The notes under the pieces: model-generated
The model's input: only the letters and a program-made list of their open reading frames with translations
What the model was told of the DNA's origin: nothing
The model's database searches: none
Part shown: piece by piece, positions 6,820 to 29,933 of the stretch
Layout of the letters: each line of letters opens with the position of its first letter
Numbering within the stretch: position 1 is the first letter of the stretch
Made by a program: the position numbers and the translations under genes
Assembly: GCA_963810935.1 (NCBI GenBank)
Contig: CAWEPK010000008.1
Coordinates: 512,001 to 576,000 of the forward strand
DNA: 64,000 nt
Direction of reading: 5' to 3'
DNA from: an uncultured delta proteobacterium
Lineage (GTDB): Bacteria; Desulfobacterota; Syntrophorhabdia; Syntrophorhabdales; WCHB1-27

Positions 6820-6851
6820 CGAGAAAAACATATTCATTTAGCGGGGACCCC

Positions 6852-9826: not shown

Positions 9827-11047
9827 TCAAAGTCTGCCTGTCCCAAAAAAAGCCGATGCAGCTTCCACCACCGCTTGTGCGAACCTGGCGTCTTCTAAAT
9901 TGGCATCCACCTCGACGATCTCTATTTCCTTCCTTAGCTTCTTTCTTAATGTCTTGCAGAAAACAGCGTCTCCTTCCGGGTCATAGGTCGGGCCGCCCGG
10001 CTTGTCTACCGAGGACCAGCCGCGCATAGGCACGAGCACCCGGACAGGCCCTTTCGACCTATTCAATTTGAGGGCGAACGCCTCCGCGATCCGCCTCAAT
10101 TCCTCAGGGCTTGCGCGCAGCCATACCCGGAGCTTGTCCAGCTCGTATCGCGGCCGTCCGTACAACATGCGGCGGGAGCGGGACGGCGTTACATGGTTCA
10201 CGCTGCACGTCGACACGATTTGGGGGATGCCGCGGGCCCCCGCCGACTCCAGCCTCCCGGGCCCGGCGTCCCGTGCGAAGCCGTAGAGGTTCTCGCCCAC
10301 GCCTCCCGTCGCCAGGTCTATCACGCCCCGGAACATCCCCGACGCAATCATCTCCTCCATGGCGCGGTCGCCGGCGCCGTTGGCATGGAACCCGACGACC
10401 TCGCAGCCCGCCTTCTCCAGGGCGGACCGGACGAAGCTCGCGCACCTTTCACAGGGGCTCATCGTCGTCATGGCTAAGGCATTGCCTGCACCGGCCCAGG
10501 TATCGGCAACGCGCCGGCACGGCATGGCGCGCACGGCGTACGCCGCCCTTTCGAGGACGCTGCGCACGGGGTTGGAAAGACCTGCTATCTCGACTACGGA
10601 GTTGAACAGTATAATATCGCTCGTTTTAGGGAAAAAGCCGGAAAGTCCGCGCATGGCTGCGACGGACGAGACCATAAGCTTCGGGAAGCCGAACGGAAGG
10701 GCCTGCATCACCGCCGCAATCATAGATGTCCCGGTATAGCCGCCTATGCCGGTGATACCTTCGATCTTCCTTTCAGCCATCAGCCTTGATGCGATGCGCG
10801 AAGCTCCGACGATCATCGTCTCCATGTTTGAGGCCATGTTTCCGGAGCCGTTCAACGCTTTAAGGCTGCGTCCGCCGGCCCGCGCCACCTCGCTTGCTGT
10901 GATGTCCGCCTTGAAAACCGGCTTTCCGCAGCGCGTGGACAGGTCCATCGACAGAGACTCCGAGCCGAGGGCCTTCAGTTCCCCGTGCAGGTAGAGCGCT
11001 TCGGCGCCCTTCGTATCCATCGTGGCGAGGAGCAGGACAGACTTCAT
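9827..11047 (-). CDS. UPF0261 / Tm-1-like ATP-binding domain protein (copy 1)
   Basis: LLATMDTKGAE, ALPFGFPKLMVSS, FHANGAGDRAMEE, VIDLAT and GPGRLESA motifs; ATG at 11047 overlaps the upstream TGA (ATGA). Confidence 0.9.
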   Translation of the reverse strand: MKSVLLLATMDTKGAEALYLHGELKALGSESLSMDLSTRCGKPVFKADITASEVARAGGRSLKALNGSGNMASNMETMIVGASRIASRLMAERKIEGITGIGGYTGTSMIAAVMQALPFGFPKLMVSSVAAMRGLSGFFPKTSDIILFNSVVEIAGLSNPVRSVLERAAYAVRAMPCRRVADTWAGAGNALAMTTMSPCERCASFVRSALEKAGCEVVGFHANGAGDRAMEEMIASGMFRGVIDLATGGVGENLYGFARDAGPGRLESAGARGIPQIVSTCSVNHVTPSRSRRMLYGRPRYELDKLRVWLRASPEELRRIAEAFALKLNRSKGPVRVLVPMRGWSSVDKPGGPTYDPEGDAVFCKTLRKKLRKEIEIVEVDANLEDARFAQAVVEAASAFFGTGRL

Positions 11048-11668
11048 ATTTGTACGTACTTCCATGAGACGGATGCCTTCCGTATCTTCCCTATGGGGAG
11101 GTCGGCGAAGTGGCCCCTGTCACGTAGATACTCGACGTTCGGCCTCCCGTCATCCGTGAAGGAAGGCAGCATGGCGTCGTCCTCTCCGTTGAACGGGACC
11201 GGGGTCACGCGCACCTTACGGCAGTAAGCGTTGTCGTAAGTGGGGGTCGCCTTGACCCATCGGCCGTCTATGTACAGGTCGGCCAGGCCGTGATACGCGA
11301 ATACGTTGCTCCCTCTCTTCAGAACAAGCTCCGGGGGCGTCAGGTGCGCGCGTATCTCCGCGAACCTGAGCCTCGCGGGTATGCCCGCGCAGCGCGCCAG
11401 AGCGGTCAGCAGGACCGCCTTCTGGACGCAGTAGCCTTCTCCGGCTGCAAGCACGCGGCTTGCCTTGAAGTGGGAATCGGTGGGCCTCTGCGCATAGACG
11501 TTATACCTGATCCCGTCCCTCACGAACAAGAAGAGGCGGACGGCCTTTTCCTTCGCGCTGCTGAGGCCGGTCGTCAGGCTCATCGGTCCTCCGGCAGACG
11601 TCCGGGTGGCCGCAATCGATAAAAAAGGTCGGCCGCAGGTAACGCTCTCTGCCTGTAAGTCTGCTCAA
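11044..11668 (-). CDS. Transglutaminase-like (Cys-His) domain protein, split by a +1 frameshift near 11585
   Basis: YLRPTFFIDCGHPDV (frame of ORF 11501-11713) joins to FVRDGIRY...GYCVQKAVLLTALARCAGIPARL...YHG...WVKATP; TTG at 11668 overlaps the upstream TGA. Confidence 0.82.
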
Positions 11669-12033
11669 TCCTCCACCAGCGTAAGGGCGTTCGGGGCGCA
11701 CCACTGCACGCACTGCGGGTTAGGCGGCTCTCCGCAGAAGTCGCACTTGAGCGGGATGCCCGTGTCGGGTTCCTTATAGACCGATTTCGACGGGCACGAG
11801 GCCCGGCAAATGACGCAGCCGTCCACCTCGACGCCCTCCAGCATGCGGACGCCTTCCGAATTACAGGCGGCCTCCGTGTACGGGCCCGCGATGACGGGCA
11901 GGCAGAACTCCTCGCCCACGAATACCCTGATGCGCGACCGCCACGGGTTGACGGCCCCCGTGTGGGCCAGCGAACAGGCGATCTCGCACTGCTTGCAGCC
12001 GGTGCATACCTTATGGTCTATCTTTATCTTCAT
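11665..12033 (-). CDS. Poly-[4Fe-4S] ferredoxin-like subunit, BamC-like
   Basis: CTGCKQCEIAC, NPWRSRIRV, AGPYTEAAC, CVICRASCPS, EPDTGIPLKCDFC and CVQWC. The CRASCPS...EPDxGxPLKCD pattern is what I recall for BamC of class II benzoyl-CoA reductase (to be verified by alignment). Confidence 0.85.
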   Translation of the reverse strand: MKIKIDHKVCTGCKQCEIACSLAHTGAVNPWRSRIRVFVGEEFCLPVIAGPYTEAACNSEGVRMLEGVEVDGCVICRASCPSKSVYKEPDTGIPLKCDFCGEPPNPQCVQWCAPNALTLVED

Positions 12034-13847
12034 TCCGGGTCCGATCCTTCTTTGTCCAGCCCGATTTTATGGAGCTTCTCTTTGGTGGGCGCGCCTTTTT
12101 CGTCCCATTCCCTCAACCGGTAGTATTCGACGAGCAGCTTATCAAGCTCCACGACCCGGTTCTTCACGCGGGGCTCTTTGAGTATCCTCGGCGGCAGGGA
12201 GTCATCCTCGCCCGTGAGGCCTGCCCTCATATTGAAAAGGCGCTCGAGATTCCAAATCTTCTCTCCTAGCCTGTTGACCCCGTCCTGCGTGTATGCGGTG
12301 CCGGTCACGTACGTCAGCCACTCGGCGAGCTTCTCGCCCCAGAGCGGGCCATGGTAGACGATCCAGCAGAGTATCCCCGAATCGGCGGCCGCTATATAAT
12401 CCTGGTCCTTCTTCGTAAACTCTACAAAGCGGGCGGGGTCTTTCCGTCCCTCGTAGAACGGCATGGTCGATTTCGTGTGCGCGCCTCCCGTATTGGAGGT
12501 GGCGTACTGCAAGCCGAGCGCGTCGAACGCCTGCGGGTGCCAGGCCGGTATGCCCATGCCCTTAACGCCCATGAATAACTCCGGGTGGCCGTATCGCCCG
12601 GCAAAAGCCAGCCCGCCTTCCGCCATGAGGTCGCCGATCCCCTCCCTGTGGGCTATCTGCTTGAGCAGTTGGAACATGTTCGTGCTTCCGAATTCGAGCG
12701 GGTAGCCGAGGTCTTTTTCGGGCAGGTGGCCCTCCTCGAAAAGCTCCATGGCGCAGGAGACCATCGCCCCCGTCGTGATCGTATCCATGCCGAGCTCGTT
12801 GCACAGGTAATTGGCCCTGCAGATGTCCTCCATCTGCCCGAGACCGCAGTTCGCCCCCATAAGGGCCATCGTCTCATGCTCCGGCCCTTTTGCCGTCAAC
12901 GGGTATTCCGGGTCCTTGATGCGGCTCCTTTTCCCGCATGAGAAGGGGCAGGAGAAGCAGGCCTCGTCGCGCACCCGGATCAGGTCCCTGATCACCTCGG
13001 GGTCCTCATACTTCACGAAATCTTCGGAGTATCCCGATTTGAAATTGAACGCCGCCTGGCTCTTGCTTGCGTTCGCCCGGCCGGGCAGCGACCAGGTGCC
13101 GTATCTCCTACGCTTGTAGAATTCGCCGTTCTCGCGGGCTTCCTTGTAAAACTCCATGACCGCCTTCCGGAAGCCCTCCACGTCGGCGATGTTGACCGGT
13201 CCGGTCCCCAGGGCGGCCACCGCTTTGAGGTTCTTCGACCCCATGACCGCCCCCAGGCCCGAGCGTCCGGCGGCCCGCCCGCCGTCCGACATGATGCACG
13301 CGAACCTCACCATGTTCTCGCCGGCCGGGCCTATGTCGGCTACGCCCATGCTGTTGAGCGCCCAGTTATCGAAGCCGTATCTCTTTCTCATGTCTTCCCG
13401 GATCGTCTTTTCCGTATCCGCGGAGAGTTTGCCCCACAGGTGACCGGCCGGCAATATCTCCACCCGCTCGTTATTGATCGTCACGTAAACGGGCTCGGGC
13501 GACCTGCCCTCGAAGATAAGGAGGTCGTAGCCGGAATATTTCAGGTTCGATCCGAAATAGCCGCCGCAGCACGGACTCGACACGCAGTTGCTTAAGGGCG
13601 ACTTGGCGGAGACGATAAAGCGGCTTGCCGCCGGGGCCCCGCTTCCTGTCAGGGGGCCGGTGGAAAAGATAAGCTTGTTCGCCGGGCTTAAGGCGTCGAT
13701 CGCGGGGTCCACCTCATCGAAGAGTATCCTGCCGCACATGCCTCTGCCGCCGATGTAGTCGCTCATCAGGTAGGCCGGCAGCTCTTCTGTGCGGACTGTT
13801 GCCGCGGACAGGTCGATCCTCAGTATCTTCCCGTGCCACCCGAACAT
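12030..13847 (-). CDS. aor: Tungsten-containing aldehyde:ferredoxin oxidoreductase (AOR) family enzyme
   Basis: GKILRIDLS, IGGRG, KSPL, IGPAGEN, AAGRSGLGAVMGSKNLKA, CFSCPFSC, GPEHE, NELGMD, GGAH, DSGILC and ERLFNMRAG; 605 aa. Confidence 0.93.
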   Translation of the reverse strand: MFGWHGKILRIDLSAATVRTEELPAYLMSDYIGGRGMCGRILFDEVDPAIDALSPANKLIFSTGPLTGSGAPAASRFIVSAKSPLSNCVSSPCCGGYFGSNLKYSGYDLLIFEGRSPEPVYVTINNERVEILPAGHLWGKLSADTEKTIREDMRKRYGFDNWALNSMGVADIGPAGENMVRFACIMSDGGRAAGRSGLGAVMGSKNLKAVAALGTGPVNIADVEGFRKAVMEFYKEARENGEFYKRRRYGTWSLPGRANASKSQAAFNFKSGYSEDFVKYEDPEVIRDLIRVRDEACFSCPFSCGKRSRIKDPEYPLTAKGPEHETMALMGANCGLGQMEDICRANYLCNELGMDTITTGAMVSCAMELFEEGHLPEKDLGYPLEFGSTNMFQLLKQIAHREGIGDLMAEGGLAFAGRYGHPELFMGVKGMGIPAWHPQAFDALGLQYATSNTGGAHTKSTMPFYEGRKDPARFVEFTKKDQDYIAAADSGILCWIVYHGPLWGEKLAEWLTYVTGTAYTQDGVNRLGEKIWNLERLFNMRAGLTGEDDSLPPRILKEPRVKNRVVELDKLLVEYYRLREWDEKGAPTKEKLHKIGLDKEGSDPE

Positions 13848-13848
13848 A

Positions 13849-14298
13849 TCAACCCCCGCCTGGACGGCCTGAATGCGTCTCTGCGTCCCGGAACGGACCG
13901 AGCGCCCTCACCGACTCCGTCATGCCGTTGACGATGCCCGCGAAGCGCAGCCCTTCCGATGCCGACACCCAGTCGAGCCGCACCCTCTCATCCTCTACCC
14001 CGAACTGCTCGAGCACCCTTTTCAGGAGCGCCATCCTGACGGCCGTCTTGTAGTTCCCTTCCAGGTAGTGGCATTCTCCCGGATGGCACCCGAGCACGAG
14101 CACCCCGTCGGCCCCGGCCTGAAGGGCTTCGAGGACAAAGGAAGGCTCGACCCTCCCGCTGCACATTACGCGGACGATCCTGATGTTCGGGGCGTACTGG
14201 GTCCTGGACGTGCCCGCCAGGTCGGCCCCTGCGTAGGAGCACCAGTTACAACTGAAAACGAGTATCTTCGGCTCGAACTGCTTCACCTGCTGCCTCAC
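13849..14298 (-). CDS. mvhD: MvhD/FlpD-type [2Fe-2S] subunit (BamF-like, all-Cys)
   Basis: FSCNWCSYAGADLAG, RVMCSGRV, GCHPGECHY and WVSASEG. GTG at 14298 overlaps the hdrA TGA. Confidence 0.92.
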   Translation of the reverse strand: MRQQVKQFEPKILVFSCNWCSYAGADLAGTSRTQYAPNIRIVRVMCSGRVEPSFVLEALQAGADGVLVLGCHPGECHYLEGNYKTAVRMALLKRVLEQFGVEDERVRLDWVSASEGLRFAGIVNGMTESVRALGPFRDAETHSGRPGGG

Positions 14299-17200: not shown

Positions 17201-17364
17201 TGTGACATCTTGCCCCCGATGGCGGGGGACTTATCGACAAGGTAGACCCTGAACCCGGAAGCTGCGGCGTCGAGGGCGGCCTGGATGCCGCCGACGCCCG
17301 CGCCCACGACCATCATCGCCCCGACCTTATCGGAGCGCCCGGGACTTTCAGGCACCGGACTCAT
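14295..17364 (-). CDS. hdrA: Double-module HdrA-family flavoprotein (BamE-like, about 1020 aa), split by a +1 frameshift near 16058
   Basis: Module 1: VVGAGVGG, DKTFPTNDCSMC, inserted ferredoxin, QCVGSRD, CSAVCCMY. Module 2: CDCGTNI, AACTPRTHE, NIREHCS, VVGGGVAG, QCVGSRN, CSRVCC, then C-terminal 2x[4Fe-4S]. Removing one G in CAGGCTC restores SQLLFEARHTMVAEK. Confidence 0.92.
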
Positions 17365-18530
17365 ATCACCTCGCCCACGATCTCCGAGATATCCCTGACC
17401 TCCAGCACGTCCCCCCTTTTCATCGTAAGGACGCTGTCCTTTAAGTTCAGGATGCAGTAAGGGCAGGCCGTAACGATGACTTCGGCTCCCAGGCTTATTG
17501 CCTGCTCGACGAGCGTATCGGAAAAGCGCTCTCCCTTTTTCGTCTCCATCCATATCCTCGCGCCGCCGCCGCCGCAGCACAGGCTGTTCTCCCTGGCATT
17601 CACCTCATCGATCAGCGTGAGGCCGGGAATGGCGGAAAGGACTTTGCGCGGCTCGTCGTAGACGCCGTTGTGGCGCCCCAGGTAGCAGGGATCGTGGTAG
17701 ACGACCCTCTTCGGAAAGGGCCTTTCGAATAAAAGGCGTCCTGCGTCGACCAGACCGGCCAGGTACTGGACGATGTGGACCACTTTGAAATCCGCGCCAA
17801 GCCGGGGATATTCGTTTTTGAACGTCTCGTAGCAGTGGGGCGAGCTGACGATAATCTCGCCGATCCCCGACGCGCGGAACGCCTTTATGTTGGCCGCCGC
17901 GAGGCTGTCGAAAAGCGCGTAGTTCCCCGCCTTCCGCACGCTCTCGCCGCAGCAGTTCTCATCGCTGCCGAGGAGCGCGAAGGCCGCGCCGGTCTGCTTC
18001 AGTATCCCGGCCGTCCGTCGGGCCAGATTCATCATCTTTGTGTCGAAGGCGGGCACGCAGCATGAGAAATAGGCCGTTGTCGCCCCGCCGCCGGGGGCAG
18101 GCAAGTCGAGGCCCGCCGCCCAGTCGGCCCGTTCCTGCCTCGCGCCGCCCCAGGGGTTTCCCGCGCTCTTCAGGCTCGCCATCGCGCTCCTGAGGCTCGC
18201 AGGGACCGCCCTGGCGACGCTCTCCACCGTGATATTGCGGACTGCGCGTATGACGTCCGTTATTGCGACGCCGCGCGGGCAGCGGCTCACGCACGCGTTG
18301 CAGGTTGAGCAGAGCCACCAGTCTTCCTCGCCGGGCTCCACCAGCCCGAACTTAGACTCCGTGATCTTCCTGTGGGGCGTGAAGGTCCGCACGTCGTTCC
18401 AGGGACAGCTCGCCGTGCAGAGGCCGCACTGGAAGCAGTTGCGGAACGCCTCCCCGCCGGCCTCCCTGATCATCTCTATCGCTTCTTTGAAGGGCGCCGT
18501 CGCTTCCGCTGCGGGTTTTTCCCTGCTCAT
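17361..18530 (-). CDS. HdrC/HdrB-type fused Fe-S oxidoreductase with two CCG domains (HdrD/BamD-like)
   Basis: CFQCGLCTASCP, CSTCNACVSRCP, ENCCGES, SSPHCY, YHDPCYLGRHN, LCCGGGG and TACPYC; 389 aa. Confidence 0.9.
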   Translation of the reverse strand: MSREKPAAEATAPFKEAIEMIREAGGEAFRNCFQCGLCTASCPWNDVRTFTPHRKITESKFGLVEPGEEDWWLCSTCNACVSRCPRGVAITDVIRAVRNITVESVARAVPASLRSAMASLKSAGNPWGGARQERADWAAGLDLPAPGGGATTAYFSCCVPAFDTKMMNLARRTAGILKQTGAAFALLGSDENCCGESVRKAGNYALFDSLAAANIKAFRASGIGEIIVSSPHCYETFKNEYPRLGADFKVVHIVQYLAGLVDAGRLLFERPFPKRVVYHDPCYLGRHNGVYDEPRKVLSAIPGLTLIDEVNARENSLCCGGGGARIWMETKKGERFSDTLVEQAISLGAEVIVTACPYCILNLKDSVLTMKRGDVLEVRDISEIVGEVI

Positions 18531-19794: not shown

Positions 19795-19831
19795 GCGCTT
19801 CCCTCTTCGTCTTGCGGGTATCGTCCGGTCT

Positions 19832-20496: not shown

Positions 20497-20536
20497 CGGG
20501 TCCCTCCCTCTTTAGAAGATCCGCATATCCATGGGC

Positions 20537-21580
20537 CTACCTTCGGAAGAGCTGCAGCATAAGGTCGATCACGTATTGCTCGTCCTTTGCCGCCTCTTTT
20601 TTCGTATATTTCGCCCCCCTCGCCTGTACCCAGAAAATGTTCTCGGGAAAGGCAAAGCGCTTGTCGACTACCCATTCCATATCCTGCGGAGCACCGAAAT
20701 GCTCTTCGACTTGCTTGGCGACCCTCACGATCTCGAGTATCTCGGCGTCGTCTATGCACGGCGCCTGCCGGTGTTCCGGCGGCACGTCGCAGAAGACCGT
20801 CCCCTTCTCGCCGTAAACGACCATCTTCGTCTTCTGTCCTATGCTGCGGGACTCGACCGCCATCTCCTTCTTGTGCACGACGAATGAATCGGGCGTTATC
20901 TCCCCGCTGACCACGCTCTCGCCCAACCCGAAATTGCCCTCGACGATTGCCCGGTCCAGGTCCCCGACATTCGGCAGGACGGTCAGTATGACGCCCGCGG
21001 ACTTCGCCTCTATCATCATGATGACGGCGATGCCGATAGGCGCCCAGGAGACGGGCATCTTGTTGTTAAGCCGAAAGGCTATAGCCCTGGTCGTAAACGC
21101 GCTCCCCCATACCTTCTTTACGTGCTCGATGACCGCGTCCGTTCCCTGCACGTTGAGATAGCTCTCCATCTGACCGGGCATACTGACGGCCCCACTGGAA
21201 CGGACGGCGCAGGCCACGTCAGGCATCGCGACTTGTTCCTCCAGCCGCCTGTAATACATGTCGATCGACCGGCCGAGGTCGGGCGGCATGGACGCGCCTT
21301 CGATTACCTCGCGTATCCGCCCGCTTACCTCGATCAGCCGGTCAACGTCCCGGTCCATGTCTACTCCGCCGGCCAGCCTATCATCGACTATGCGGCCCAC
21401 CTCCCGGCCGAGGCCGGTGGCGTCCATGAAGTGCTCGTACGCCTTCACCGAAAGCGCAAACCCGTGCGGTACCCGCAGGCCCAGCTTTTTCATCTCGCCC
21501 AGGTTTGCGCACTTCTTGCCTACCAGGTCGTTGTATTCTTTCGAGAGCTCGTCCAGCCAGTAGATTTCCTTTGCTTCCAT
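20537..21580 (-). CDS. Stand-alone PEP-synthase ATP-grasp domain (PPDK_N), phenylphosphate synthase beta-subunit (PpsB)-like
   Basis: VGKKCANLGEM, VPHGFAL, AVRSSG, GQMESYLNV, GNFGLGESVVSG, PQDMEW and VQAR; 347 aa with no phospho-His or pyruvate domain. Confidence 0.88.
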   Translation of the reverse strand: MEAKEIYWLDELSKEYNDLVGKKCANLGEMKKLGLRVPHGFALSVKAYEHFMDATGLGREVGRIVDDRLAGGVDMDRDVDRLIEVSGRIREVIEGASMPPDLGRSIDMYYRRLEEQVAMPDVACAVRSSGAVSMPGQMESYLNVQGTDAVIEHVKKVWGSAFTTRAIAFRLNNKMPVSWAPIGIAVIMMIEAKSAGVILTVLPNVGDLDRAIVEGNFGLGESVVSGEITPDSFVVHKKEMAVESRSIGQKTKMVVYGEKGTVFCDVPPEHRQAPCIDDAEILEIVRVAKQVEEHFGAPQDMEWVVDKRFAFPENIFWVQARGAKYTKKEAAKDEQYVIDLMLQLFRR

Positions 21581-21602
21581 GGCCCCTCTCCGCGTTGCGC
21601 CT

Positions 21603-23288
21603 TTATTTGTTGAGGATGAAGACCGTCCCCATGTTAGCGTCCACCCGCACCTTCATGCCGTCTTTAAGGAGCTTCGTGCCCTCGAACACGTTCATCACGA
21701 CCGGGATGCCGTATTCCCTGCCGACGATGGCCGCGTGTGAGAGACTGGCGCCGCGGTCGACGACCACGCCGCCCAGGAGCGAGAAGACCGGCGTCCAGCT
21801 CGGCGACGTGGTCGGCGCCACAAGGATGTCGCCCTTTTCTATCTTCGACAGCTCGCTCTCGCTCCAGATAACCTTAACCGTGCCTTCGTAAACCCCGGGG
21901 GCCCCGCAGACGCCGTACAGGTCGGCCTTCAGCTCCGGCCGTGCAACCGGCATCGTGCCGACGACCACTTTAAGGGCAATCGGGTCGAGGGATTCGACGA
22001 GTCCCTTCATCGCCTCTTCAATCGAGAAGCCCTCCTTCATGATCATGGGTACATTGCCGCGCTCGCACCAACCCTGCCAGTCTGCCTTCCTGCGGTCCAC
22101 GATGTTCCGCAGGTTGAACATGGCCGGGTTGATCCCCGCCCTCCTTACCTCATCGGGGATGAGGAAGAAGATGTCTTCCGCACTGTCGATTGCCTTCTCC
22201 TTTGCGAACCGTTTCCCGACGCCCAGCGCGCTGCGTCTAAGGATTGCATGGGTATAGAGGTCGAGGTAATGGTTATGCTCCTCGCTGAACCACGCGCTGT
22301 TCTGGGCAAGGGTGAGGATCATCTTGAACCAGCTACGCTGCTCGGGCGCAACCTTTTCGAGCACCTCTTTTTCCATGGCCAGCCTTTCGGCCTCGTGCGC
22401 TTTCCTTTCCTCGTCCAGGTTGTAGTCGATCCCTTTATCGAGGCCCATCTTGATTACGTTGAAGGCGGGCGTGGGGTCCTCCAGCCAGGTCGGCACGTTG
22501 ATCTCCGCCATCCTCTCCATCCTCCACCCGGCTTCATTCTCCATGAAATAGTCGAACGACTTGAGGAACGCCGGCCCGTTCGGGGCGCCTTCGAGCGCGC
22601 TCCTCATTTTAGTCGCAGGGTTGGCAGTGAAGATATCCTTGAGCGCCAGCGACTCCGCCTGTTTGGCAAGATCGAAGAGCCCTTTGTCCACCTGGAAGCT
22701 TTTGTTATCGAAACCGCTCGTCAGCTTGTGGAACTGCGGGCTGGTATCGTCGAAGCCAAGGAGCTGCCGCGTCATCTGCTCAAACAGGACGAAGGCGGTG
22801 TAGACGCCGTACATCATGTACATATGGATTTCCCACATCCGCCGGCAGGTATCGATGGCCTGCTCGAAGTTGTCGAGGATCTCGATGTTCGTGGCCTTGT
22901 CCATATCGAGCGCCTTGACCTTATCGTACCGGCCGACCATCTCATTAACGAAACCGCGCCACATACCCTGGAAATCCTCGATGAACGGCCTGATGGCGGT
23001 CCTGAACCGCTCCTCCCTTTCGGCCCTCTCCTTCGGGTCCTTCACGATCAGCAACGCCAGGTAACCTGCCCCGTCCTTGAACCGCCAGTCCCATCCCTTC
23101 ACTGTCGGCAGCGAAAGCTTCTCCGCCCCGTACTGCATCCCGTGCCTGCAGAAGTTGACCCAGAACCAGCCGAACATCGGCGTCCAAGGCGGCACTGAGT
23201 GCGTCGCATCCTGGAACCAGCACGGTGATATGTCGAAATCCGTAGCTTCGTCGAACTCGAGACCCGGAACACAATCGTACATCTTCAT
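21603..23288 (-). CDS. PEP-utilizing mobile phospho-His domain protein with helical substrate-binding region, phenylphosphate synthase alpha-subunit (PpsA)-like
   Basis: WFQDATHS N-terminus; C-terminal GDILVAPTTSPSWTPVF...VVVDRGASLSHAAIVGREYGIP with the phospho-acceptor His; 561 aa. Confidence 0.88.
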   Translation of the reverse strand: MKMYDCVPGLEFDEATDFDISPCWFQDATHSVPPWTPMFGWFWVNFCRHGMQYGAEKLSLPTVKGWDWRFKDGAGYLALLIVKDPKERAEREERFRTAIRPFIEDFQGMWRGFVNEMVGRYDKVKALDMDKATNIEILDNFEQAIDTCRRMWEIHMYMMYGVYTAFVLFEQMTRQLLGFDDTSPQFHKLTSGFDNKSFQVDKGLFDLAKQAESLALKDIFTANPATKMRSALEGAPNGPAFLKSFDYFMENEAGWRMERMAEINVPTWLEDPTPAFNVIKMGLDKGIDYNLDEERKAHEAERLAMEKEVLEKVAPEQRSWFKMILTLAQNSAWFSEEHNHYLDLYTHAILRRSALGVGKRFAKEKAIDSAEDIFFLIPDEVRRAGINPAMFNLRNIVDRRKADWQGWCERGNVPMIMKEGFSIEEAMKGLVESLDPIALKVVVGTMPVARPELKADLYGVCGAPGVYEGTVKVIWSESELSKIEKGDILVAPTTSPSWTPVFSLLGGVVVDRGASLSHAAIVGREYGIPVVMNVFEGTKLLKDGMKVRVDANMGTVFILNK

Positions 23289-23328
23289 AATTGCCCCCCC
23301 TGTTTAGGTTTTACCCCCTTAACCACCC

Positions 23329-24081
23329 CTAGTGCATTGCCCTACCGCCATTGACCAGTATGGTCTGGCCCGTTATAAAGTCCGCTGCATCCGACGACAG
23401 GAATACCGTGACCCCCACGATATCCTCCGGCATACCGACTCGTCTGAGAGGGGTTTTTGAGACGTCGTACTTCGTCACGTCGGCGATGGTCCTGCTGGCC
23501 TCGGTGTCCGTGAAACCGGGGGCCACCGCGTTGACGGTGACGTTGTCCGGCCCCAGCTCGGCGGCGAGCGCCCGCGTCAGGCCCAGGACGCCGCCTTTCG
23601 ACGCTACATAGTGAACGAAGCCGTTCGAGCCCGTGAAACATGTTTCCGACGATATGTTTACGATCTTGCCTTTTCCCTGCGCCTTCATATAGGGGTAGAC
23701 GGCCTTCGTGCAGAGCCACGGCCCCTTGACGTTGATGGCCATCATACGGTCCCATTCCTCGACCGTTATCGCCGTGAAGGCCTTGCGCTCGACCCCGAAG
23801 TAATAACCGGCGTTATTGACGAGCACGTCGATCCTGCCGAACTTCTCCACGGTCGCCTGGGCCATACCCTTCAGGCCCTCCGCGTCGGTTACGTCGGCCC
23901 GGAACCAGATGCACTCGCTGCCTTTCGCCGATATCTCTTCCGCCGTCTTTCTGACACCCTCCACGTCTATGTCGCTGAGTGCCAGCCTCGCTCCCTCTTC
24001 GGCGAAGGCCATCGCGAACGCCCTGCCCAGGCCCTTCGCTCCGCCCGTGATAACAGCAACCTTTCCCTCCAAGAGTTTCAT
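23329..24081 (-). CDS. Short-chain dehydrogenase/reductase (SDR)
   Basis: TGGAKGLG, NNAG, NISS, YVASK and TGQTILVNGG; acidic residue after beta-2 (LSDID) suggests NAD preference. Confidence 0.95.
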   Translation of the reverse strand: MKLLEGKVAVITGGAKGLGRAFAMAFAEEGARLALSDIDVEGVRKTAEEISAKGSECIWFRADVTDAEGLKGMAQATVEKFGRIDVLVNNAGYYFGVERKAFTAITVEEWDRMMAINVKGPWLCTKAVYPYMKAQGKGKIVNISSETCFTGSNGFVHYVASKGGVLGLTRALAAELGPDNVTVNAVAPGFTDTEASRTIADVTKYDVSKTPLRRVGMPEDIVGVTVFLSSDAADFITGQTILVNGGRAMH

Positions 24082-24118
24082 GGCTCCCGCTCCTTATCCT
24101 GAACAACGGGCCGGGGAA

Positions 24119-24982
24119 TCAGGCGACCTTCACCAGAAAATCCCCCCGGTCCAAGCCTGTCTGCCTGGCCAGGGGACGGCACTTGATTTTCAGCATGTAA
24201 ATCGCCTTCTTCCCCTGCGCCTCGCCCATCAGCGATTCATAGCTCCCGGTACCCTTGACGACGAGCAGGTCGCTCTCCAGGAAAGCCTGCTGCGCCCTCG
24301 TCTCTCCCTGTCCGGGCACGAAGACCTTGTCCGTCGTAACTACCTCGTCGACCGTATCTTCGAGGCCGAAGAAAGCGGCATCCTCGACGGTGGCGTCCTC
24401 GAAAAAGACGGGCTCCTTCACCACGAGCGTCACTCTCACGCCCATCTCCTTCATCATCCCGATGAGGAGCGAGTCGAAACCGATCTCGCCGGCGTTGTCC
24501 GTCACGTAAAAAACGCTTTGCGCCTCCCGGACCGCCTCGTACGGGTCTCCCACGACAACCGGGGGTGCGAGTCTCTCCTCGATGATGCCCGCCGCATCCG
24601 CGAAGGTGAAAGTCTCCGAGGGCCGGCCGATGGGCGCAATGTTGGCGGCCGCCGCGAGAAAACAGGCCCTTTCGAGCCTCTCCTTTGTCGTTTCTCCGTT
24701 CTTTATATACGCGCCTGCCGCATCGAGTAACTCCATCGCGCGGGCATCGGCGCCCTTCTTGAACTCATTCCAGAAATCGGGTGCCGGAGTCACGAATTCG
24801 TAGACAAGGGCAACTGCCCGGTTGCACAGACAGGCGAGGTTCGACGTGTCCGTTATCTCCTCCGAGACGAAGTCGATGACCTTCCGGAACAACCGGGGAC
24901 TGTCCCGGTCCCCGCTCCCAGCGGCGGCCCTTCCGTAAACCCAGCCAAGCAGGCAAACGCCGCATTCAAGCTCGGGCTTCAT
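24119..24982 (-). CDS. DUF89/ARMT1-like metal-dependent (damage-control) phosphatase
   Basis: N-terminal ECGVC, AAAANI, YVTDNAGEIGFD, EDAT, KGTGSYES and LKIKC. Confidence 0.8.
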   Translation of the reverse strand: MKPELECGVCLLGWVYGRAAAGSGDRDSPRLFRKVIDFVSEEITDTSNLACLCNRAVALVYEFVTPAPDFWNEFKKGADARAMELLDAAGAYIKNGETTKERLERACFLAAAANIAPIGRPSETFTFADAAGIIEERLAPPVVVGDPYEAVREAQSVFYVTDNAGEIGFDSLLIGMMKEMGVRVTLVVKEPVFFEDATVEDAAFFGLEDTVDEVVTTDKVFVPGQGETRAQQAFLESDLLVVKGTGSYESLMGEAQGKKAIYMLKIKCRPLARQTGLDRGDFLVKVA

Positions 24983-25007
24983 ATGCCTCCCGCTTTCCTG
25001 AAGTTCA

Positions 25008-26693
25008 TTACCAGCCGCGCTCTTCCCAGGGCCTGTACTTCAGGTCGAAATCCTTCGCGATGAGCTTGTAGCAATTGTAGCTGCTGCCCCGCCCTATGCC
25101 GTGCGCCGGGTGGCACGCCATGCCGGCCATGTAGTAGTTCCTGATAGGCATGCGCTGCCCCGAAAGCTCCGGCATCGGCCTGTTTCTCCCGGAACATTCG
25201 TAATGCGCGTCGAGACCGCCCCACCCGCCCTGCGGCATGCACGGGTTCCTGTTAACCACGTCGTCGGGGGTGGCTATCCAGCCGCCGATAAAGTTCTCTT
25301 TGGTCACGTTTGGGGCGTACTTGCCCCATTCGGCGACCATCCTGACCTCTATCTCCCTCTTCATCCTCAGCCAATCGCGCTCGCTGAAGTTCCTCCAGGG
25401 ACACGTAAATTCTTCAACGAGGGCCGCGAACCTGCCTTCAGGCGCGCGCGTCCTGTCCCACTGGACGTCCGGGGCGACGAGAAGGTAGAGCTTGTCGGCT
25501 ATGCCCTTGGCCCAGCGCTCCTGCTGGTAACGGCCGCTCAGGAAATATTCGGGGTCCGCCTCGCCGAAATAGAGCCTCGGGACGAGCCCCAGCTCCGGGT
25601 TCTGCGGGTATTTGGGCGGCTCCATCAGGGCAATGTTGCCCCAGAAAAGTTGTGTCCTTTCATAGCCCTTGTCGTCGTAAAGCGATTCCGGTCTTTCCTT
25701 CAGCCTCTGCCCCTTTGCCCAGACGTCGGCGGGCCAGTTGTCCCTGCCCGCAACGTCCATCGTCAGCTCGGTATTCAGGTCGCTCACGACCAGGTCGGCC
25801 AGGATCTTATTCCCGTCGGCCAACTCGACCCCGTAGGCCTTGTTGTTATCGACAAGCACCCTCTTCACTTCATTAAGGACGAAGAACTCGCCGCCATATT
25901 GCTGGAAGGCCCTGAGCAACGCATGGGTGATGCTATGGGTGCCGCCCGTCACTATGGCGGCCGCGTCCATCGACAGGATCAGGCCCAGCGCATGGATGTG
26001 CCAGTAAGGGCCCGGCCTGTCCTGCGGGAAGAAGCCCGTGGACGTCTGGATCGCCCTCATATAGAACGTCTGCATCTCCGGGCTTTTGAATAACGTCGTA
26101 GCGATATGGCCGACCGTCCCGAACGCGATATCCGGGTCGAGTCCGTCTTTCGGGTCGTCGGCAAGGGCCTCCAGCGGGTCGGGACCGTCCGGCCATTCGG
26201 CCGGCCCGGTGAAGCGGTACTTGTGCCAGGCCGACCGCCACCTGGTCTTGTACCTCCTGATTATCTCCTCGACGGTGTTGGCGTCGTCCTTGTTGATCTT
26301 GGCCACTTCCTTGATTGTGTAATCGGCGGCCGCCTCGGAGAATTCCGCCCTGCCGCTTATGGGGTCGACAACCGGGAAGATGGTCTTGCCGAGGATATAG
26401 TTGCCGTCCGGATATATCCATGCCTCGTTGTTCTCCGGGAAGAGGTAAACGAGGCCGTAGTCTCTCAAGTTGAAGTCCTGGTATGCCGGGTTCGTGTAGA
26501 ACCGCGTGAAGTGGGCGCACACATTCTGGATGAAGCCGGGCAGCGGAAGCTCCTCACCGCATGCGCCGCCGCCCATCTCGTGCCACCGCTCGAACATGGC
26601 CGTCTTGAGCCCCGCCCTCTGAAGGTAGCAGGCGATGATCGTAGCGTGGTGGCCGCCCCCGACTATGACGGCATCGTATTTCTTATCTGGCAT
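25008..26693 (-). CDS. Phytoene-dehydrogenase-family (COG1233) FAD-dependent oxidoreductase, subunit B
   Basis: YDAVIVGGGHHA..., ERWHEMGGG, GGTHSITHAL, APEG, TPDD and RMPIRNYYMAGMACHPAHGI. Confidence 0.88.
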   Translation of the reverse strand: MPDKKYDAVIVGGGHHATIIACYLQRAGLKTAMFERWHEMGGGACGEELPLPGFIQNVCAHFTRFYTNPAYQDFNLRDYGLVYLFPENNEAWIYPDGNYILGKTIFPVVDPISGRAEFSEAAADYTIKEVAKINKDDANTVEEIIRRYKTRWRSAWHKYRFTGPAEWPDGPDPLEALADDPKDGLDPDIAFGTVGHIATTLFKSPEMQTFYMRAIQTSTGFFPQDRPGPYWHIHALGLILSMDAAAIVTGGTHSITHALLRAFQQYGGEFFVLNEVKRVLVDNNKAYGVELADGNKILADLVVSDLNTELTMDVAGRDNWPADVWAKGQRLKERPESLYDDKGYERTQLFWGNIALMEPPKYPQNPELGLVPRLYFGEADPEYFLSGRYQQERWAKGIADKLYLLVAPDVQWDRTRAPEGRFAALVEEFTCPWRNFSERDWLRMKREIEVRMVAEWGKYAPNVTKENFIGGWIATPDDVVNRNPCMPQGGWGGLDAHYECSGRNRPMPELSGQRMPIRNYYMAGMACHPAHGIGRGSSYNCYKLIAKDFDLKYRPWEERGW

Positions 26694-26724
26694 ATCGAAC
26701 CTCCTTGGGATCGTTCTTCATTCA

Positions 26725-27135
26725 TCACCTGCTCGGGATAGGCCGCGGGCCCTGGCTCGGTATGGGCTGCGGTCCCGCTTTCGCGGCCGAGGGGGCCGTC
26801 ACAGGAGGGGCCTGGGGTTGCAGGCCGCCCGCGGAAGCCTCTTCAAGCGGCGGGTAGACCGGAGATTTTGAAAAAAGGAACTTTATTCCACGCATGATCA
26901 GGACCGGGTTTTTAAGGACCGTCCAGACCATATGCCTGAGGTCGCCTGGATCCACGAAGGCCCTGACCGTCCAATGGACGGGGTGTTGGATCTCCATGAC
27001 CATCAGCATGCGCATCGGCTCGGCCGCACCGTTTGCGGGCGGCTCCAGCGTCGAAGGCACCATCCCGGTAGTCTCAATCGCGGCTATCCGTCCGCGAAGC
27101 AGCGTCCTGCCCAACCCTGTAGATCGTATGAACAT
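26725..27135 (-). CDS. Small hypothetical protein between the two COG1233 genes
   Basis: 136-aa ORF with AGGAGG RBS, filling the gap between the two flavoprotein genes on the same strand; Pro/Ala-rich tail. Confidence 0.7.
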   Translation of the reverse strand: MFIRSTGLGRTLLRGRIAAIETTGMVPSTLEPPANGAAEPMRMLMVMEIQHPVHWTVRAFVDPGDLRHMVWTVLKNPVLIMRGIKFLFSKSPVYPPLEEASAGGLQPQAPPVTAPSAAKAGPQPIPSQGPRPIPSR

Positions 27136-27153
27136 CCCGCCCTCCTGACAGTT

Positions 27154-28794
27154 TCAGAATAGTCCCAGGTCCCTGGCTTCTTTCACGCCCCTCGGCTCGG
27201 GCCACCACTTCTCTATGCCCAGGTCGTCCGCTATCCTTTCTGCCGCGTTGAAGCCGGGGCCGTACGTAATCATGCCGCCCGAGTGCGTGCATGCGCCCGC
27301 GAGATACAGCTTCCTGATCGGCGAATCGTGCTGGCTGCAATATTCGTTGGGCCTGAAGTAGCCCATCTGCAGCGGGAGATAGGCGCCCTGCTTGAAGCAG
27401 CCGTTCTTCATGTCCGGGAACTTGTTTTCCGTGTCGAGGGGCGTCCCGATGTAGTCCCACAATATGCTGTCGGAATTCATGTTCGGCGCGTATCTTTCGA
27501 GCATCTTCTTGCATTGCTCCGCGTAAGGCCGTCTCATTTTGTTCCACGCGAGAGCGCCGCCGTCCTTCAGCCTGTACGGCGCGCATTCCATGCTGATGAG
27601 GCCGACGTGCTTCACGACGCTTTCGGGCCGGCGGTGGACCCGGATGGGGTCGTGGATCGAAGGGAAGCAGCAGTTGAACCCGCCGTCGTGCAGCTCGCCC
27701 CGCTTCGACGCCTCGAAGTGGTCGATCAGGTCCTGCTCGCTTTCGTACCCGATCACGTAAATGAGGGATTCGGCCAGCTCGGGGTCGTTCTCTATGGCCT
27801 TGAACCGCGGCGCTTCGGTCAGGGCGAGATGGCACGTGAAGAAGCTCATCTCCGAGTATCGCCACTGGTCGAGCCTGGTGATAAGCTCCTGCTCCAGGTG
27901 TTGTTTGCCCACGTAATCATAGAACGTCTGGTGCGGGTTGAGTGCGCTGCAGACGAACTTGTTCGCCCTGATGACGGTGCCGTCGTCCAGCTCAACCCCC
28001 TTCGCCTCCCCGTTCTCGATGATGATCCTCTTTATGACGCAGCCGCTAATCACCCTGCTGCCGTTTTCCGATATATATTTTCCGAGGAGATGGGCCACGT
28101 GGTGAGACCCCATATGGCACAGGCGGAAGTGCCAGCCGCGGTTCATCATCAGGGGCACGAGGTATCCGAGGCCCTCCAGGTCGTAGTCAAGTCCCCACAT
28201 AGTGGCAAGATAAAGGAAGAGCGCGCGGACCCTGTCGTTCTCGAACCAGGCGTCGATGATCTGCCGGGGGGTGTATCCGGTCAGCTCGTCGTCCCATTTC
28301 GTCGCCGGGTGCCTTTCAAGCTTTGCGGCCTGCTCCAGACTCGGCAGCGGGTTCACATAGCTCGCCGGGGCAAGGAAGACATCCATCGCGTCGTCCGACC
28401 ATTTTACGAAGTTCCTGAAAGATTCCGCGTCGTTCGCGGAGAACTTGGCGATCGACTTCGCGGACCTCTCCGTGTCCCTGTAGAGGGCGAGATGGGTCCC
28501 GTCCTGAAAGGGCATCACCACCTGGACGTTGGGATAGATCCATTGCAGGTCGTACTTTGTCTCAAGCTCGAAGTCCCGCATCGGAGGGGCATATTCGACC
28601 ATCATGTGGTAGATCGCGTGGCTGTCCACGAGCATACCGGGAAGGAGCAGGTTCTCCGTCGCCAGGCCTCCCCCGATCTCGTACCGTCGCTCCAGGACCG
28701 CCACCTTCAGTCCCGCCTTGGCGAGATAGCCGGCGGTAGTCAGCCCGTTCGGACCCGCACCGATCACGATACCGTCAAACTCCAGTTCCCTCAT
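27154..28794 (-). CDS. Phytoene-dehydrogenase-family (COG1233) FAD-dependent oxidoreductase, subunit A
   Basis: IVIGAGPNGL, ERRYEIGGG, TPLD, FRP and SPIRKLYLAGACTHSGGMI; AAGGAGG RBS; first gene of the operon. Confidence 0.9.
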   Translation of the reverse strand: MRELEFDGIVIGAGPNGLTTAGYLAKAGLKVAVLERRYEIGGGLATENLLLPGMLVDSHAIYHMMVEYAPPMRDFELETKYDLQWIYPNVQVVMPFQDGTHLALYRDTERSAKSIAKFSANDAESFRNFVKWSDDAMDVFLAPASYVNPLPSLEQAAKLERHPATKWDDELTGYTPRQIIDAWFENDRVRALFLYLATMWGLDYDLEGLGYLVPLMMNRGWHFRLCHMGSHHVAHLLGKYISENGSRVISGCVIKRIIIENGEAKGVELDDGTVIRANKFVCSALNPHQTFYDYVGKQHLEQELITRLDQWRYSEMSFFTCHLALTEAPRFKAIENDPELAESLIYVIGYESEQDLIDHFEASKRGELHDGGFNCCFPSIHDPIRVHRRPESVVKHVGLISMECAPYRLKDGGALAWNKMRRPYAEQCKKMLERYAPNMNSDSILWDYIGTPLDTENKFPDMKNGCFKQGAYLPLQMGYFRPNEYCSQHDSPIRKLYLAGACTHSGGMITYGPGFNAAERIADDLGIEKWWPEPRGVKEARDLGLF

Positions 28795-28865
28795 GTCGCC
28801 TCCTTCCCCCTTGTAATGCTTCGGCTAAAAAGACGTAACCAGTGAAAACTTCGCAAATGAATTAA

Positions 28866-28913
28866 ATTATGTCGGGTTGGATGTTGACATATCAATACAA
28901 TTTAATTTATACT
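28866..28913. promoter_or_regulatory. Back-to-back sigma70-like promoters for the catabolic operon (-) and lysR (+)
   Basis: Plus strand: TTGACA(28884-89)-N18-TATACT(28908-13). Minus strand: TTGATA(28895-90)-N18-CATAAT(28871-66). AT-rich intergenic region. Confidence 0.55.
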
Positions 28914-28979
28914 CGTGTTAGAATCGTTATGTTTTCTGTAAAGTTTCTTTACAGCATTCGAGGTGGATAAGATTCTCGA

Positions 28980-29933
28980 ATGAACATAAATCTGAACCAA
29001 CTCAAGGCTTTTTACCTCGTTGCAAAGAACGGAACCTTCTCCAAAGCTGCCGATGAATTGTTCGTTACCGAGCCTGCGGTTTTCGTCCAGGTGCGCACGC
29101 TTGAGCGGTGCCTCGGGCTGAAGCTCCTCGATAAATTCGGAAAGGACCTGCGGCTTACGGAGATCGGGAGGCTGCTTTACGGGTACGCCGGCAGGATTTT
29201 CAGCATAGTCGATGAGGCCGAAACGGCGATAAAGGACATCGGGGCGCTCAATAAGGGGGAGCTGAGGGTTGGGACCACAAGCACCCTTGCCGAATATCTG
29301 CTGCCCCTCATACTCCCCGCTTTCAGCGCAAGCCACACGAAGGTCCAGGTGTACCTCGAAGAGACGAACTCCGGCCAACTGGTGAAAGGCGTCCTTGCGC
29401 ACCAGTATGAAATGGCTATCGTGGCAAGGGTAGCCTACCCCGACACTATCGAATACACGACGCTGAGCAGAGATGAAATCCTTCTCGTCGCCTCGCCGGA
29501 CGACAGCCTCGCACAGAAGCAGCGGTGCTCGCTCAAGGAGCTGAACGGTTACCCGATGATATGCCGCGACGTGAAATCTGCGACGAGGCAAGCGGTATGG
29601 AAAGAGTTCGTGAAGAGAGACATCAAGCCCTCCGCTGTCATAGAGGCAGCCAATACGGAGTTGATCAAGAGGCTCGTGGCGAGCGGCAGGGGCGTCTCTC
29701 TCCTTTCGGAGGTATGCGTCAAGAAAGAGATAGAGCGCGGCGAGCTGGCCGCCATACCCATTGCTGAAGGGCCTTTCTTCCTCGATATCGACGCGATCTA
29801 TCTGAGGGGCAGGACGTTATCGCCCGCGGCGGCTTCCTTCCTCAGCTTTCTCCTTAAAACAGGCACATCGGAAAACCTGAACCACTTCGTGGGGGTTATG
29901 AAGGGTAGGAAACCCCTGGTCGCTTTATCCTGA
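28980..29933 (+). CDS. LysR-family transcriptional regulator
   Basis: NLNQLKAF...TFSKAADELFVTEPAV...LRLTEIG HTH and GELRVG substrate-binding domain; divergent from the operon. Confidence 0.95.
   Translation: MNINLNQLKAFYLVAKNGTFSKAADELFVTEPAVFVQVRTLERCLGLKLLDKFGKDLRLTEIGRLLYGYAGRIFSIVDEAETAIKDIGALNKGELRVGTTSTLAEYLLPLILPAFSASHTKVQVYLEETNSGQLVKGVLAHQYEMAIVARVAYPDTIEYTTLSRDEILLVASPDDSLAQKQRCSLKELNGYPMICRDVKSATRQAVWKEFVKRDIKPSAVIEAANTELIKRLVASGRGVSLLSEVCVKKEIERGELAAIPIAEGPFFLDIDAIYLRGRTLSPAAASFLSFLLKTGTSENLNHFVGVMKGRKPLVALS

Follow-up and report, generated by a model that had tools for sequence, protein, structure and literature searches.

We show here that a 64,000-nucleotide stretch of the genome of an uncultured delta proteobacterium (Syntrophorhabdales, WCHB1-27; assembly GCA_963810935.1, contig CAWEPK010000008.1, positions 512,001 to 576,000; hereafter the window) carries a 16-gene operon, and we propose, giving the proposal an even chance, that it encodes an O2-independent conversion of p-cresol to 4-hydroxybenzoate via the alcohol and the aldehyde, with an aryl-phosphate intermediate. 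p-Cresol, a widespread pollutant, is also formed when tyrosine is fermented in digesters and sediments. We observed the gene content of the operon, its conservation, the replacement of enzymes in individual slots, its phylogenetic position and the lack of known alternatives in a cultured carrier, Syntrophorhabdus aromaticivorans UI; from these we infer every reaction, the substrate, the order and direction of the steps and the electron path. The source genome (G000) is 93% complete; other G-numbers denote compared genomes and L-numbers fetched loci.

A sequence-only reading of the window had described 16 minus-strand genes running from 28794 to 9827, divergent from a LysR gene. Their coordinates and order were borne out, as was their tight spacing, with intergenic gaps of -4 to 81 bp. 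The operon comprises the following genes:

27154..28794, minus strand: COG1233 flavoprotein subunit A, 546 amino acids, His59 in the covalent-flavin motif; matches CrtO/CrtI-like models below cut-off
26725..27135, minus strand: small conserved protein of no known family, with an MxxxSTGLGxT start and a hydrophobic C-terminal helix; no Pfam match
25008..26693, minus strand: COG1233 flavoprotein subunit B, 561 amino acids, Cys59 at the flavin-attachment site, assigned by structure model and motif alignment
24119..24982, minus strand: putative DUF89/ARMT1-like phosphatase (PF01937, E 4e-34)
23329..24081, minus strand: putative alcohol dehydrogenase of the short-chain dehydrogenase/reductase (SDR) type (Pfam adh_short)
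21603..23288, minus strand: dikinase substrate-binding/His-swivel subunit (kinase A; PpsA/CreH/HpeH-like), His518 in SLSH (PF00391)
20537..21580, minus strand: dikinase ATP-grasp subunit (kinase B; PpsB/CreI/HpeI-like), PF01326, E 4e-82, with PDB matches
19795..20496, minus strand: tandem small alpha+beta protein, NIPSNAP-like as a lead only, no stop codon
18527..19794, minus strand: UPF0261-b (MarK/Tm-1 family) with a DTR motif, frameshifted; one open reading frame (ORF) of 410-445 amino acids in most relatives
17361..18530, minus strand: HdrBC/BamD-like Fe-S/CCG subunit (PF02754 and Fer4), 48% identical to the BamD beside BamB on contig C12
14295..17364, minus strand: double HdrA/BamE-like flavoprotein, the HdrA2 model matching both halves; frameshifted near 16057
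13849..14280, minus strand: MvhD/FlxD-like 2Fe-2S subunit (PF02662, E 1e-54)
12030..13847, minus strand: aldehyde:ferredoxin oxidoreductase (AOR) of the tungsten family (AFOR_N and AFOR_C)
11665..12033, minus strand: BamC-like ferredoxin subunit (Fer4), 47% identical to BamC-like paralogs
11044..11583, minus strand: transglutaminase-like protein (PF01841), which follows the ferredoxin in L013, L017, L040 and L068
9827..11047, minus strand: UPF0261-a, MarK-like (match to 9MPY, E 1.5e-53)

The gene set recurs well beyond the source genome. A kinase A match of at least 61% was present in 20 of 40 relatives; outside the order, 16 genomes of a 400-genome phylum sample, in which only the top three kinase candidates per genome were scored, had a match of 59% or more. 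Neighbours were counted by frameshift-tolerant tblastn within 12 kb of 44 distinct kinase-A genes that share 56% identity or more with the window kinase, and of 22 distant ones at no more than 30%, SDR neighbours being scored at 45% identity or above. Since the compared genomes are kin and no count given here is independent, locus counts describe rather than test. Near the 44 close kinases stood SDR (43), COG1233 (39), NIPSNAP-like (35) and UPF0261 (21) genes, PaaK-type ligases (14), HdrA (8), UbiD (1) and biotin carboxylase (0); the distant kinases had COG1233 nearby in 1 case and UbiD in 9. Seven close kinases had been reached via subunit A, and the other 37 were picked by kinase similarity alone. 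COG1233 genes accompany 32 of these 37; of the five kinases without one, four stand no more than about 1 kb from the end of a contig, and the other is an orphan copy in UI. Desulfobacteraceae and Dehalococcoidales records show a rearranged gene order, and in G177, from another family, the order reads B-SDR-HdrD-HdrA-AOR-ferredoxin-kinase. The synteny check called for by the sequence-only reading thus came out in its favour, SDR and COG1233 being the steadiest partners.

Each proposed slot was likewise found to be occupied, at times by an unrelated family. DUF89 fills the phosphatase slot in 25 of the 44 loci and an HD hydrolase in 9, with both in none and neither in 10, while the aldehyde slot holds a tungsten AOR in 16, a Mo-type aldehyde oxidoreductase in 7, both in none and neither in 21. 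DUF89 and HD phosphatases were seen together at L067, which belongs to another kinase class. These patterns support the view that the operon genes form one conserved functional module.

The kinase has separate ATP-grasp and His-swivel subunits and the catalytic His, and by its sequence it is a two-component phenolic dikinase, predicted to phosphorylate a ring hydroxyl group. It might be an ordinary phenylphosphate synthase that works with a UbiD carboxylase encoded elsewhere, the redox genes being unrelated passengers. G000, in which kinase A is single-copy, does have six UbiD-family genes, one of them about 12.5 kb beyond the operon end, and its incompleteness leaves room for this reading; phenol pps/ppc clusters, too, have NIPSNAP-like and UPF0261 genes at their sides, COG1233 pairs lie among phenol-cluster genes at L045 and L047, and module and phenol cluster adjoin in UI. 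However, the window kinase is only 21-26% identical to nine UbiD-linked kinases, which share 40-96% among themselves. In an 85-row tree (quick IQ-TREE, SH-aLRT support only, long-branch warnings) its subunit A falls into a 30-row clade (SH-aLRT 99), with a long, fully supported branch to UbiD/PpcG-linked kinases. This tree carries neighbourhood labels in place of characterised references; Thauera PpsA, CreH, HpeH, AcvA and the rifampicin phosphotransferase RPH are absent, and "canonical" Pps is defined by gene neighbours. Nearer tree neighbours include kinases beside biotin carboxylases (Hpe/Acv arrangement), with a grouping support of 94 only. None of the UbiD-family proteins of G000 exceeds 32% identity to Ppc-type subunits, and a search of this genome, at its 93% completeness, gave no PpcG-like gene; UbiD stands near 1 of the 44 close kinases, and UI keeps both systems. 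The expectations that the kinase would group apart from UbiD-linked PpsAB and lack a Ppc-type partner therefore withstood the checks, and the phenol carboxylation reading, tested in this way, fails: we regard it as largely refuted and highly improbable.

Several further kinase groups came to light in these comparisons. L089-L093 hold a clade at 26-28% identity, accompanied by an amidohydrolase and in many cases by an old yellow enzyme and a CoA ligase, UbiD and COG1233 being absent nearby. A clade of kinases of about 615 amino acids (L076, L077, L081) has no UbiD in the fetched flank, and two of its loci adjoin class I benzoyl-CoA reductase-like (BadF, HGD-D) genes. Relatives of G000 also carry anaerobic Hpe/Acv-like clusters of biotin carboxylase, UPF0261 and dikinase genes (L098, L105-L107, L111, L112), most of them also holding a thiolase and a ChsH2-like gene. 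Some 3 kb to the left of the window start there is a UbiD gene.

S. aromaticivorans UI, which degrades and grows on p-cresol (PMC3916484), provides the cultured test case. Its module, at about 2,592,000-2,611,000 of NZ_KI867150.1, is 82% (A), 82% (B), 71% (SDR) and 61% (kinase) identical to that of the window and runs in the order subunit A, small protein, subunit B, DUF89, second kinase A, SDR, ABM gene, kinase A, NIPSNAP-like gene, PaaK-type ligase, kinase B, Mo-type aldehyde oxidoreductase, DUF89, an unassigned gene and UPF0261, next to a phenol pps/ppc cluster. As UI carries the module and consumes p-cresol, p-cresol is favoured as the substrate. The earlier statement that the substrate cannot be read from sequence holds in that p-cresol is still a deduction; it no longer holds in that UI narrows the choice. 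With no PFL-like glycyl-radical enzyme in the UI genome, Hbs is excluded there. An enzyme of the p-cresol methylhydroxylase (PCMH) type was not found among its four FAD_binding_4 genes, three of which are GlcD/LctD-like and one of which is an unscanned 303-amino-acid frame, and the best match to an ethylbenzene-dehydrogenase-type (type II DMSO-reductase) enzyme reached 95 bits against a cut-off of 985. The single COG1233 pair of the genome lies inside the module, which thus supplies candidate genes in a cultured strain where none of the three known O2-free methyl-activating enzyme types was found.

The PaaK-type ligase of the UI module is 82% identical to that of a UbiD-linked phenol cluster (L094), in which the product before the ligase would be 4-hydroxybenzoate, and it has an 87% ortholog in G000, located outside the operon. 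In D. anilini, a 4-hydroxybenzoate ligase is described inside the phenol cluster (PMC6114531). We dropped the idea that a PaaK-type ligase implies a C2 side chain because of this match to the phenol-cluster ligase and because the isophthalate ligase of UI is itself PaaK-type while UI does not grow on phenylacetate (PMC9516798).

Twenty-one listed runs from bioreactors, digesters and sludge contain UI-type DNA, and 14 of them are recorded as RNA. In four runs from four studies, contigs begin at L042:9963-10011, the first gene having its ATG at 10001; depth is 0-50 in the upstream flank versus 83-1278 in the first genes, and in three of these runs a single contig covers B to the kinase and beyond. 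This coverage is a weak hint of co-transcription in UI-like strains. UI also has an orphan second kinase A (57%; L120, G041:C3 110039-111718) beside UPF0261 and LysR genes, without kinase B or flavoproteins.

The proposed attack on the methyl group is assigned to the COG1233 pair. Subunits A and B are adjacent, distant COG1233 paralogs with a CrtI-like fold, 24% identical to each other, and the model of B (pLDDT 90.8) has the fold of carotenoid desaturases (4REP, TM 0.73). The motif G-F-x-x-N/S-T/L-H-A marks covalent flavin attachment in CtmAB and delta24-desaturase (PMC11061730), both of which have His in both subunits. At this site, 52 of 52 A-type rows carry His and 48 of 51 B-type rows carry Cys, so that B departs from those two enzymes; it may work like CtmAB by means of a cysteinyl-flavin. 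Subunit A stays 80-90% identical across loci, B varies from 55 to 90%, and in family f34 a single B-type gene stands with genes for electron-transfer flavoprotein (ETF) and an Fe-S oxidoreductase, a route by which high-potential electrons are usually drained. For these reasons, B is probably the catalytic or specificity subunit. The fetched loci hold 47 homologs of the small protein, placed behind subunit A by the gene maps, and in Atlas it falls into unnamed clusters only; it is possibly an accessory or anchor of the flavoprotein, and a complex prediction with subunit A (score 0.01) carries no weight either way. Nearest named records of A come from Syntrophorhabdales/Syntrophorhabdaceae (89-90%), and the best 120 rows of each homolog search held no close characterised relative; a plasmid search with B gave distant matches only, 23-26% identical among the best 15 rows. 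A second module type, at L034, L060 and L099, combines subunit A (82-89%) and B (55-58%) with a geranylgeranyl-reductase-family flavoprotein and an SDR.

We consider it unlikely that the pair is instead a side-chain desaturase or works reductively, turning benzyl alcohol into the methyl compound as an electron sink while hydroxybenzaldehydes are disproportionated to acid and cresol. The fold of subunit B is that of carotenoid desaturases, and of the two COG1233 heterodimers that have been characterised one desaturates its substrate (PMC11061730), which also counts against hydroxylation as we propose it. The reductive direction would be downhill in a syntroph, on assumed potentials, and would give the HdrA-type module a high-potential acceptor. 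Yet neither a hydratase nor a beta-oxidation gene is a regular neighbour in the close-clade gene maps, UI consumes p-cresol with no other activating candidate found there, and SDR, aldehyde oxidoreductase and acid-CoA ligase together read most simply as an oxidative series.

As an oxidative route to 4-hydroxybenzoate, the operon would work as follows. The COG1233 pair, with covalently bound flavins, would use water to hydroxylate the methyl group, as in the CtmAB reaction with limonene, and the SDR would take the resulting benzyl alcohol to the aldehyde. The Pps-like dikinase would then phosphorylate the ring hydroxyl, the tungsten AOR (or the Mo-type enzyme in other loci) would oxidise the aldehyde, and DUF89 (or the HD hydrolase) would take the phosphate off. 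The PaaK-type ligase, outside the operon in G000, would finally yield 4-hydroxybenzoyl-CoA for the class II benzoyl-CoA route; at L062, a 4-hydroxybenzoyl-CoA reductase-like gene (885 bits, cut-off 995) stands beside the module.

Phosphorylation of the alcohol or aldehyde appears slightly more probable to us than phosphorylation of the cresol itself, because the phenol then stays free for the hydroxylation and the first two steps get pulled. Against protection first speak the quinone-methide chemistry of PCMH, which requires a free p-hydroxyl (PMC13416013), the phosphorylation of 4-hydroxybenzaldehyde by HpeHI (PMC12167813) and MarK (PMC12624787), and the linkage of the kinase, tightest with the SDR. 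On the other side, flavoprotein genes adjoin a phenol-type kinase at L047, CtmAB needs no phenol, and early phosphorylation would trap a diffusible substrate. Both orders may occur, as UI has two kinase-A genes.

The tungsten enzyme of the operon was correctly foreseen to be AOR-type: it scores 453-467 bits to solved AORs and 202 to BamB, whereas the true BamB of G000, on contig C12 with BamCDEF-like neighbours, scores 1115 bits to 4Z3W. HdrA flavoprotein (frameshifted), MvhD and CCG subunit are all present, the composition of an electron-bifurcating HdrA module. In G000, this BamDE-like Hdr module probably couples low-potential AOR electrons with high-potential electrons of the hydroxylation by confurcation, a view that draws on assumed potentials. 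If the three oxidations are given potentials of +80, -200 and -570 mV, they come to +67, +13 and -59 kJ/mol versus H2 at 1 Pa. The mean of the first and third potentials, -245 mV, is near that of H+/H2 at the same 1 Pa, and thus HdrA-type confurcation could pay for the first oxidation in G000. Reversed electron flow is the answer proposed for PCMH in Geobacter (PMC4122944). The sequence-only reading had assigned the handling of electrons to an HdrA/MvhD module; with HdrA near so few of the close kinases and UI lacking orthologs of both AOR and HdrA, the Hdr part is one solution rather than core.

Several points weigh against the proposed pathway. Energetics is the main objection. On the assumed potentials the hydroxylation lies at about +67 kJ/mol versus H2 at 1 Pa, and limonene dehydrogenase is said to require an acceptor of positive potential, so that it might fail in methanogenic or sulfate-reducing systems (PMC12583861); the Hdr module that could pay for this step is near only 8 of 44 kinases. 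The loci with neither phosphatase, and those with neither aldehyde oxidoreductase, many of the fetched loci being cut short, add to this. Glycyl-radical enzymes co-occur with the module, in 3 of 21 module genomes against 4 of 20 others, so that there is neither contrast nor mutual exclusion. The UI kinase is only 61% identical to that of the window, the UI module adds a second kinase A and an ABM gene absent from G000, and the best UI matches to the operon AOR and HdrA, although long, are not orthologs (36% and 51%). The argument by exclusion in UI would miss enzyme types not yet described. As to the runs, contig depth is a poor expression measure, the runs were chosen with the stretch, RNA libraries can hold DNA, and a contig is not a transcript.

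The same chemistry may also serve another substrate, such as m- or o-cresol, a xylenol, methylcatechol, creosol, ethylphenol or a hydroxy-methylpyridine, and we give this a modest chance of being right. The near-constant subunit A (80-90%) pairs with B at about 88, 80, 70 and 57% and with differing kinase clades, G009 and G030 carry two modules each, and G000 is uncultured. At L064, L065, L104 and L166, COG1233 pairs adjoin biotin-carboxylase genes, an arrangement that an ethylphenol/hydroxyacetophenone route would predict. For the window, however, p-cresol is favoured by UI subunit B, which falls into the same 21-row clade as that of the window (support 100, FastTree), by the match of the module ligase to the phenol-cluster ligase, and by the absence of biotin carboxylase near the close kinases. 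The four loci just named, together with L101, L102 and L151, combine COG1233 and a Pps-like kinase, usually with SDR and UPF0261, beside two-subunit biotin-carboxylase genes, and are candidates for an anaerobic ethylphenol/hydroxyacetophenone route in which COG1233 replaces the PCMH-type hydroxylase. To readings outside those named we leave a small residual probability.

The remaining companions of the kinase are the UPF0261 and NIPSNAP-like genes. UPF0261 is no longer a family without function, since MarK of Novosphingobium is a UPF0261 aromatic kinase for phenolic ketones and aldehydes (PMC12624787). UPF0261-a has the N and C domains of the family and keeps the ATP-site lysine (DTK) and the phenol-binding His219 (FHAN), whereas the acetovanillone pocket G195/H304/H348 of MarK is not kept (S, an E/Y region and V), the residue roles being those given for MarK (PMC12624787). 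At the ATP site, UPF0261-b has DTR and UPF0261-c, outside the operon, NTK. These MarK-like proteins are probably extra aryl kinases or sensors. The gene described earlier as NIPSNAP-like is present, and its family label is no more than a lead: there is no Pfam match, and only 11-17% of the members of its look-alike clusters carry PF07978. Both kinds of gene also flank UbiD-linked phenol kinases and clusters, which makes them general companions of these kinases.

Three further features lie at the regulator end of the operon:

28866..28913, no strand: back-to-back sigma70-like promoter sites, with 10/12 and 11/12 consensus matches (pattern only)
28980..29933, plus strand: divergent LysR regulator; a divergent LysR 47-69% identical occurs in several relatives including UI
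29953..31102, minus strand: UPF0261-c, convergent with LysR, frameshifted near 30690; one ORF of 383-388 amino acids in four relatives

The two sigma70-like sites are the best of 19.6 kb and lie, back to back, between the operon and LysR in a gap of 185 bp; as six sites were found versus 5.3 by chance, only the position of these two is informative. A terminator scan (13 found versus 16.5 expected) was uninformative. The two UPF0261 genes listed by the sequence-only reading stand, and the third, UPF0261-c, had been overlooked.

Against three relatives each, HdrA shows a surplus base near 16057 and UPF0261-b a missing base near 18994. The NIPSNAP-like gene, lacking a stop codon, reads in frame into UPF0261-b, which may be a fusion private to this genome or else a mistake in the assembly; at 18973-20496, the intergenic stretch between the two is about 43 bases shorter than in G003. 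The frameshifts are likely assembly indels, since HdrA is one ORF of 1010-1031 amino acids in six of eight relatives and, among the tested G000 genes, 9 of 96 position bins are divided between two frames; real pseudogenes are less likely. Beyond the operon, positions 140-8873 hold a xanthine-oxidase-family small subunit and a major facilitator superfamily gene (minus strand), a 971-amino-acid fused Mo-hydroxylase, an ABC binding protein and a secreted 673-amino-acid protein without Pfam match; no link of these genes to the operon was seen in relatives.

The module is apparently undescribed. We found no published description of the gene set, the key UI papers being outside our coverage, so that an earlier mention is possible. 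Excerpts of the D. anilini papers (PMC7500099, PMC6114531) and the D. gibsoniae genome paper (PMC4148979) give pps/ppc, aniline or Hbs routes only, and those of PMC7411048 and PMC10579272 hold nothing specific to it. If the proposal is true, COG1233 flavoproteins extend from allylic to benzylic hydroxylation, contrary to the published expectation that such enzymes fail in methanogenic systems, phenolic dikinases gain an anaerobic role beyond carboxylation, and the module provides marker genes for alkylphenol degradation. It is tempting to speculate, quite tentatively, that aryl phosphorylation, in some hosts with HdrA confurcation, enables a His/Cys-flavinylated COG1233 hydroxylase to make a third O2-free attack on the cresol methyl group in organisms that have hardly any high-potential acceptor, that the same chassis of kinase, flavoprotein, SDR and phosphatase has diversified into alkylphenol modules across Desulfobacterota and Chloroflexota, and that this would explain p-cresol removal in methanogenic digesters.

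Among known systems, the anaerobic p-cresol activators PCMH (PchCF/PcmIJ; VAO/PCMH fold) and HbsABC (glycyl radical) belong to families unrelated to the module, although the PCMH route has the same intermediates as proposed here: alcohol, aldehyde and acid. No glycyl-radical enzyme was found in G000, where the PCMH scan covered part of the FAD_binding_4 genes. A trio of FAD-binding, CCG Fe-S and FAD-binding proteins with an IclR gene occurs at L169 (G000:C1:104500-111500) and L172, and its architecture resembles that of a benzene-induced flavoprotein of culture BzS1 (PMC13416013). By sequence we rejected the G000 trio as a PCMH, as its G009 ortholog, through which it was scored, gave no more than 67 bits against any solved chain of a VAO/PCMH or lactate dehydrogenase, with matches in the N-terminal half only.

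CtmAB of Castellaniella defragrans, a COG1233 enzyme (PMC4109377), and delta24-desaturase of Sterolibacterium denitrificans share with the module, compared by description, the COG1233 heterodimer, subunits that are about 24-27% identical to each other and the covalent-flavin motif near the N-terminus (PMC4109377, PMC11061730). They differ in acting at allylic positions, in denitrifiers, with His in both subunits; the module has Cys in B, a small third gene in between, a linked kinase and low-potential anaerobe hosts. PpsAB with Ppc (Thauera, Desulfatiglans, Syntrophorhabdus) has in common with it the dikinase architecture, the Ser before the catalytic His, the NIPSNAP-like and UPF0261 companions and a closely related CoA ligase, whereas the module kinase, of 561 rather than 612-626 amino acids, sits in its separate clade with no Ppc partner. 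HpeHI/AcvAB and MarK phosphorylate the ring hydroxyl of carbonyl-substituted phenols including 4-hydroxybenzaldehyde (PMC12167813, PMC12624787), and three MarK-family genes lie in the window locus; unlike the window kinase clade, which has no such gene nearby, they feed a biotin carboxylase, in aerobes, and the MarK ketone-binding residues are not kept.

The electron-handling genes recall BamBCDEF and Hdr-Flx systems, their BamD-, BamE-, MvhD- and BamC-like subunits being 43-53% identical to the Bam copy of G000 itself and FlxABC-like genes being inserted in several relatives, but their tungsten partner is AOR-type and not BamB. The Cre pathway is a functional parallel. Its remaining steps after the kinase (CreJEF, CreG, CreC and CreD) are reportedly methyl hydroxylation, alcohol oxidation, aldehyde oxidation and phosphate removal. 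CreHI initiates this catabolism of 4-cresol in Corynebacterium glutamicum (PMC12167813), and the slots of two-component dikinase, methyl hydroxylase, alcohol/aldehyde oxidation and phosphatase are the same in both. The Cre pathway is aerobic and P450-dependent, whereas the module, from strict anaerobes, has a COG1233 flavoprotein, a tungsten or Mo-type aldehyde oxidoreductase, a DUF89 or HD hydrolase, and Hdr or ETF. With no P450 among the operon proteins, the module is not a member of the Cre pathway, and by analogy it would work like one.

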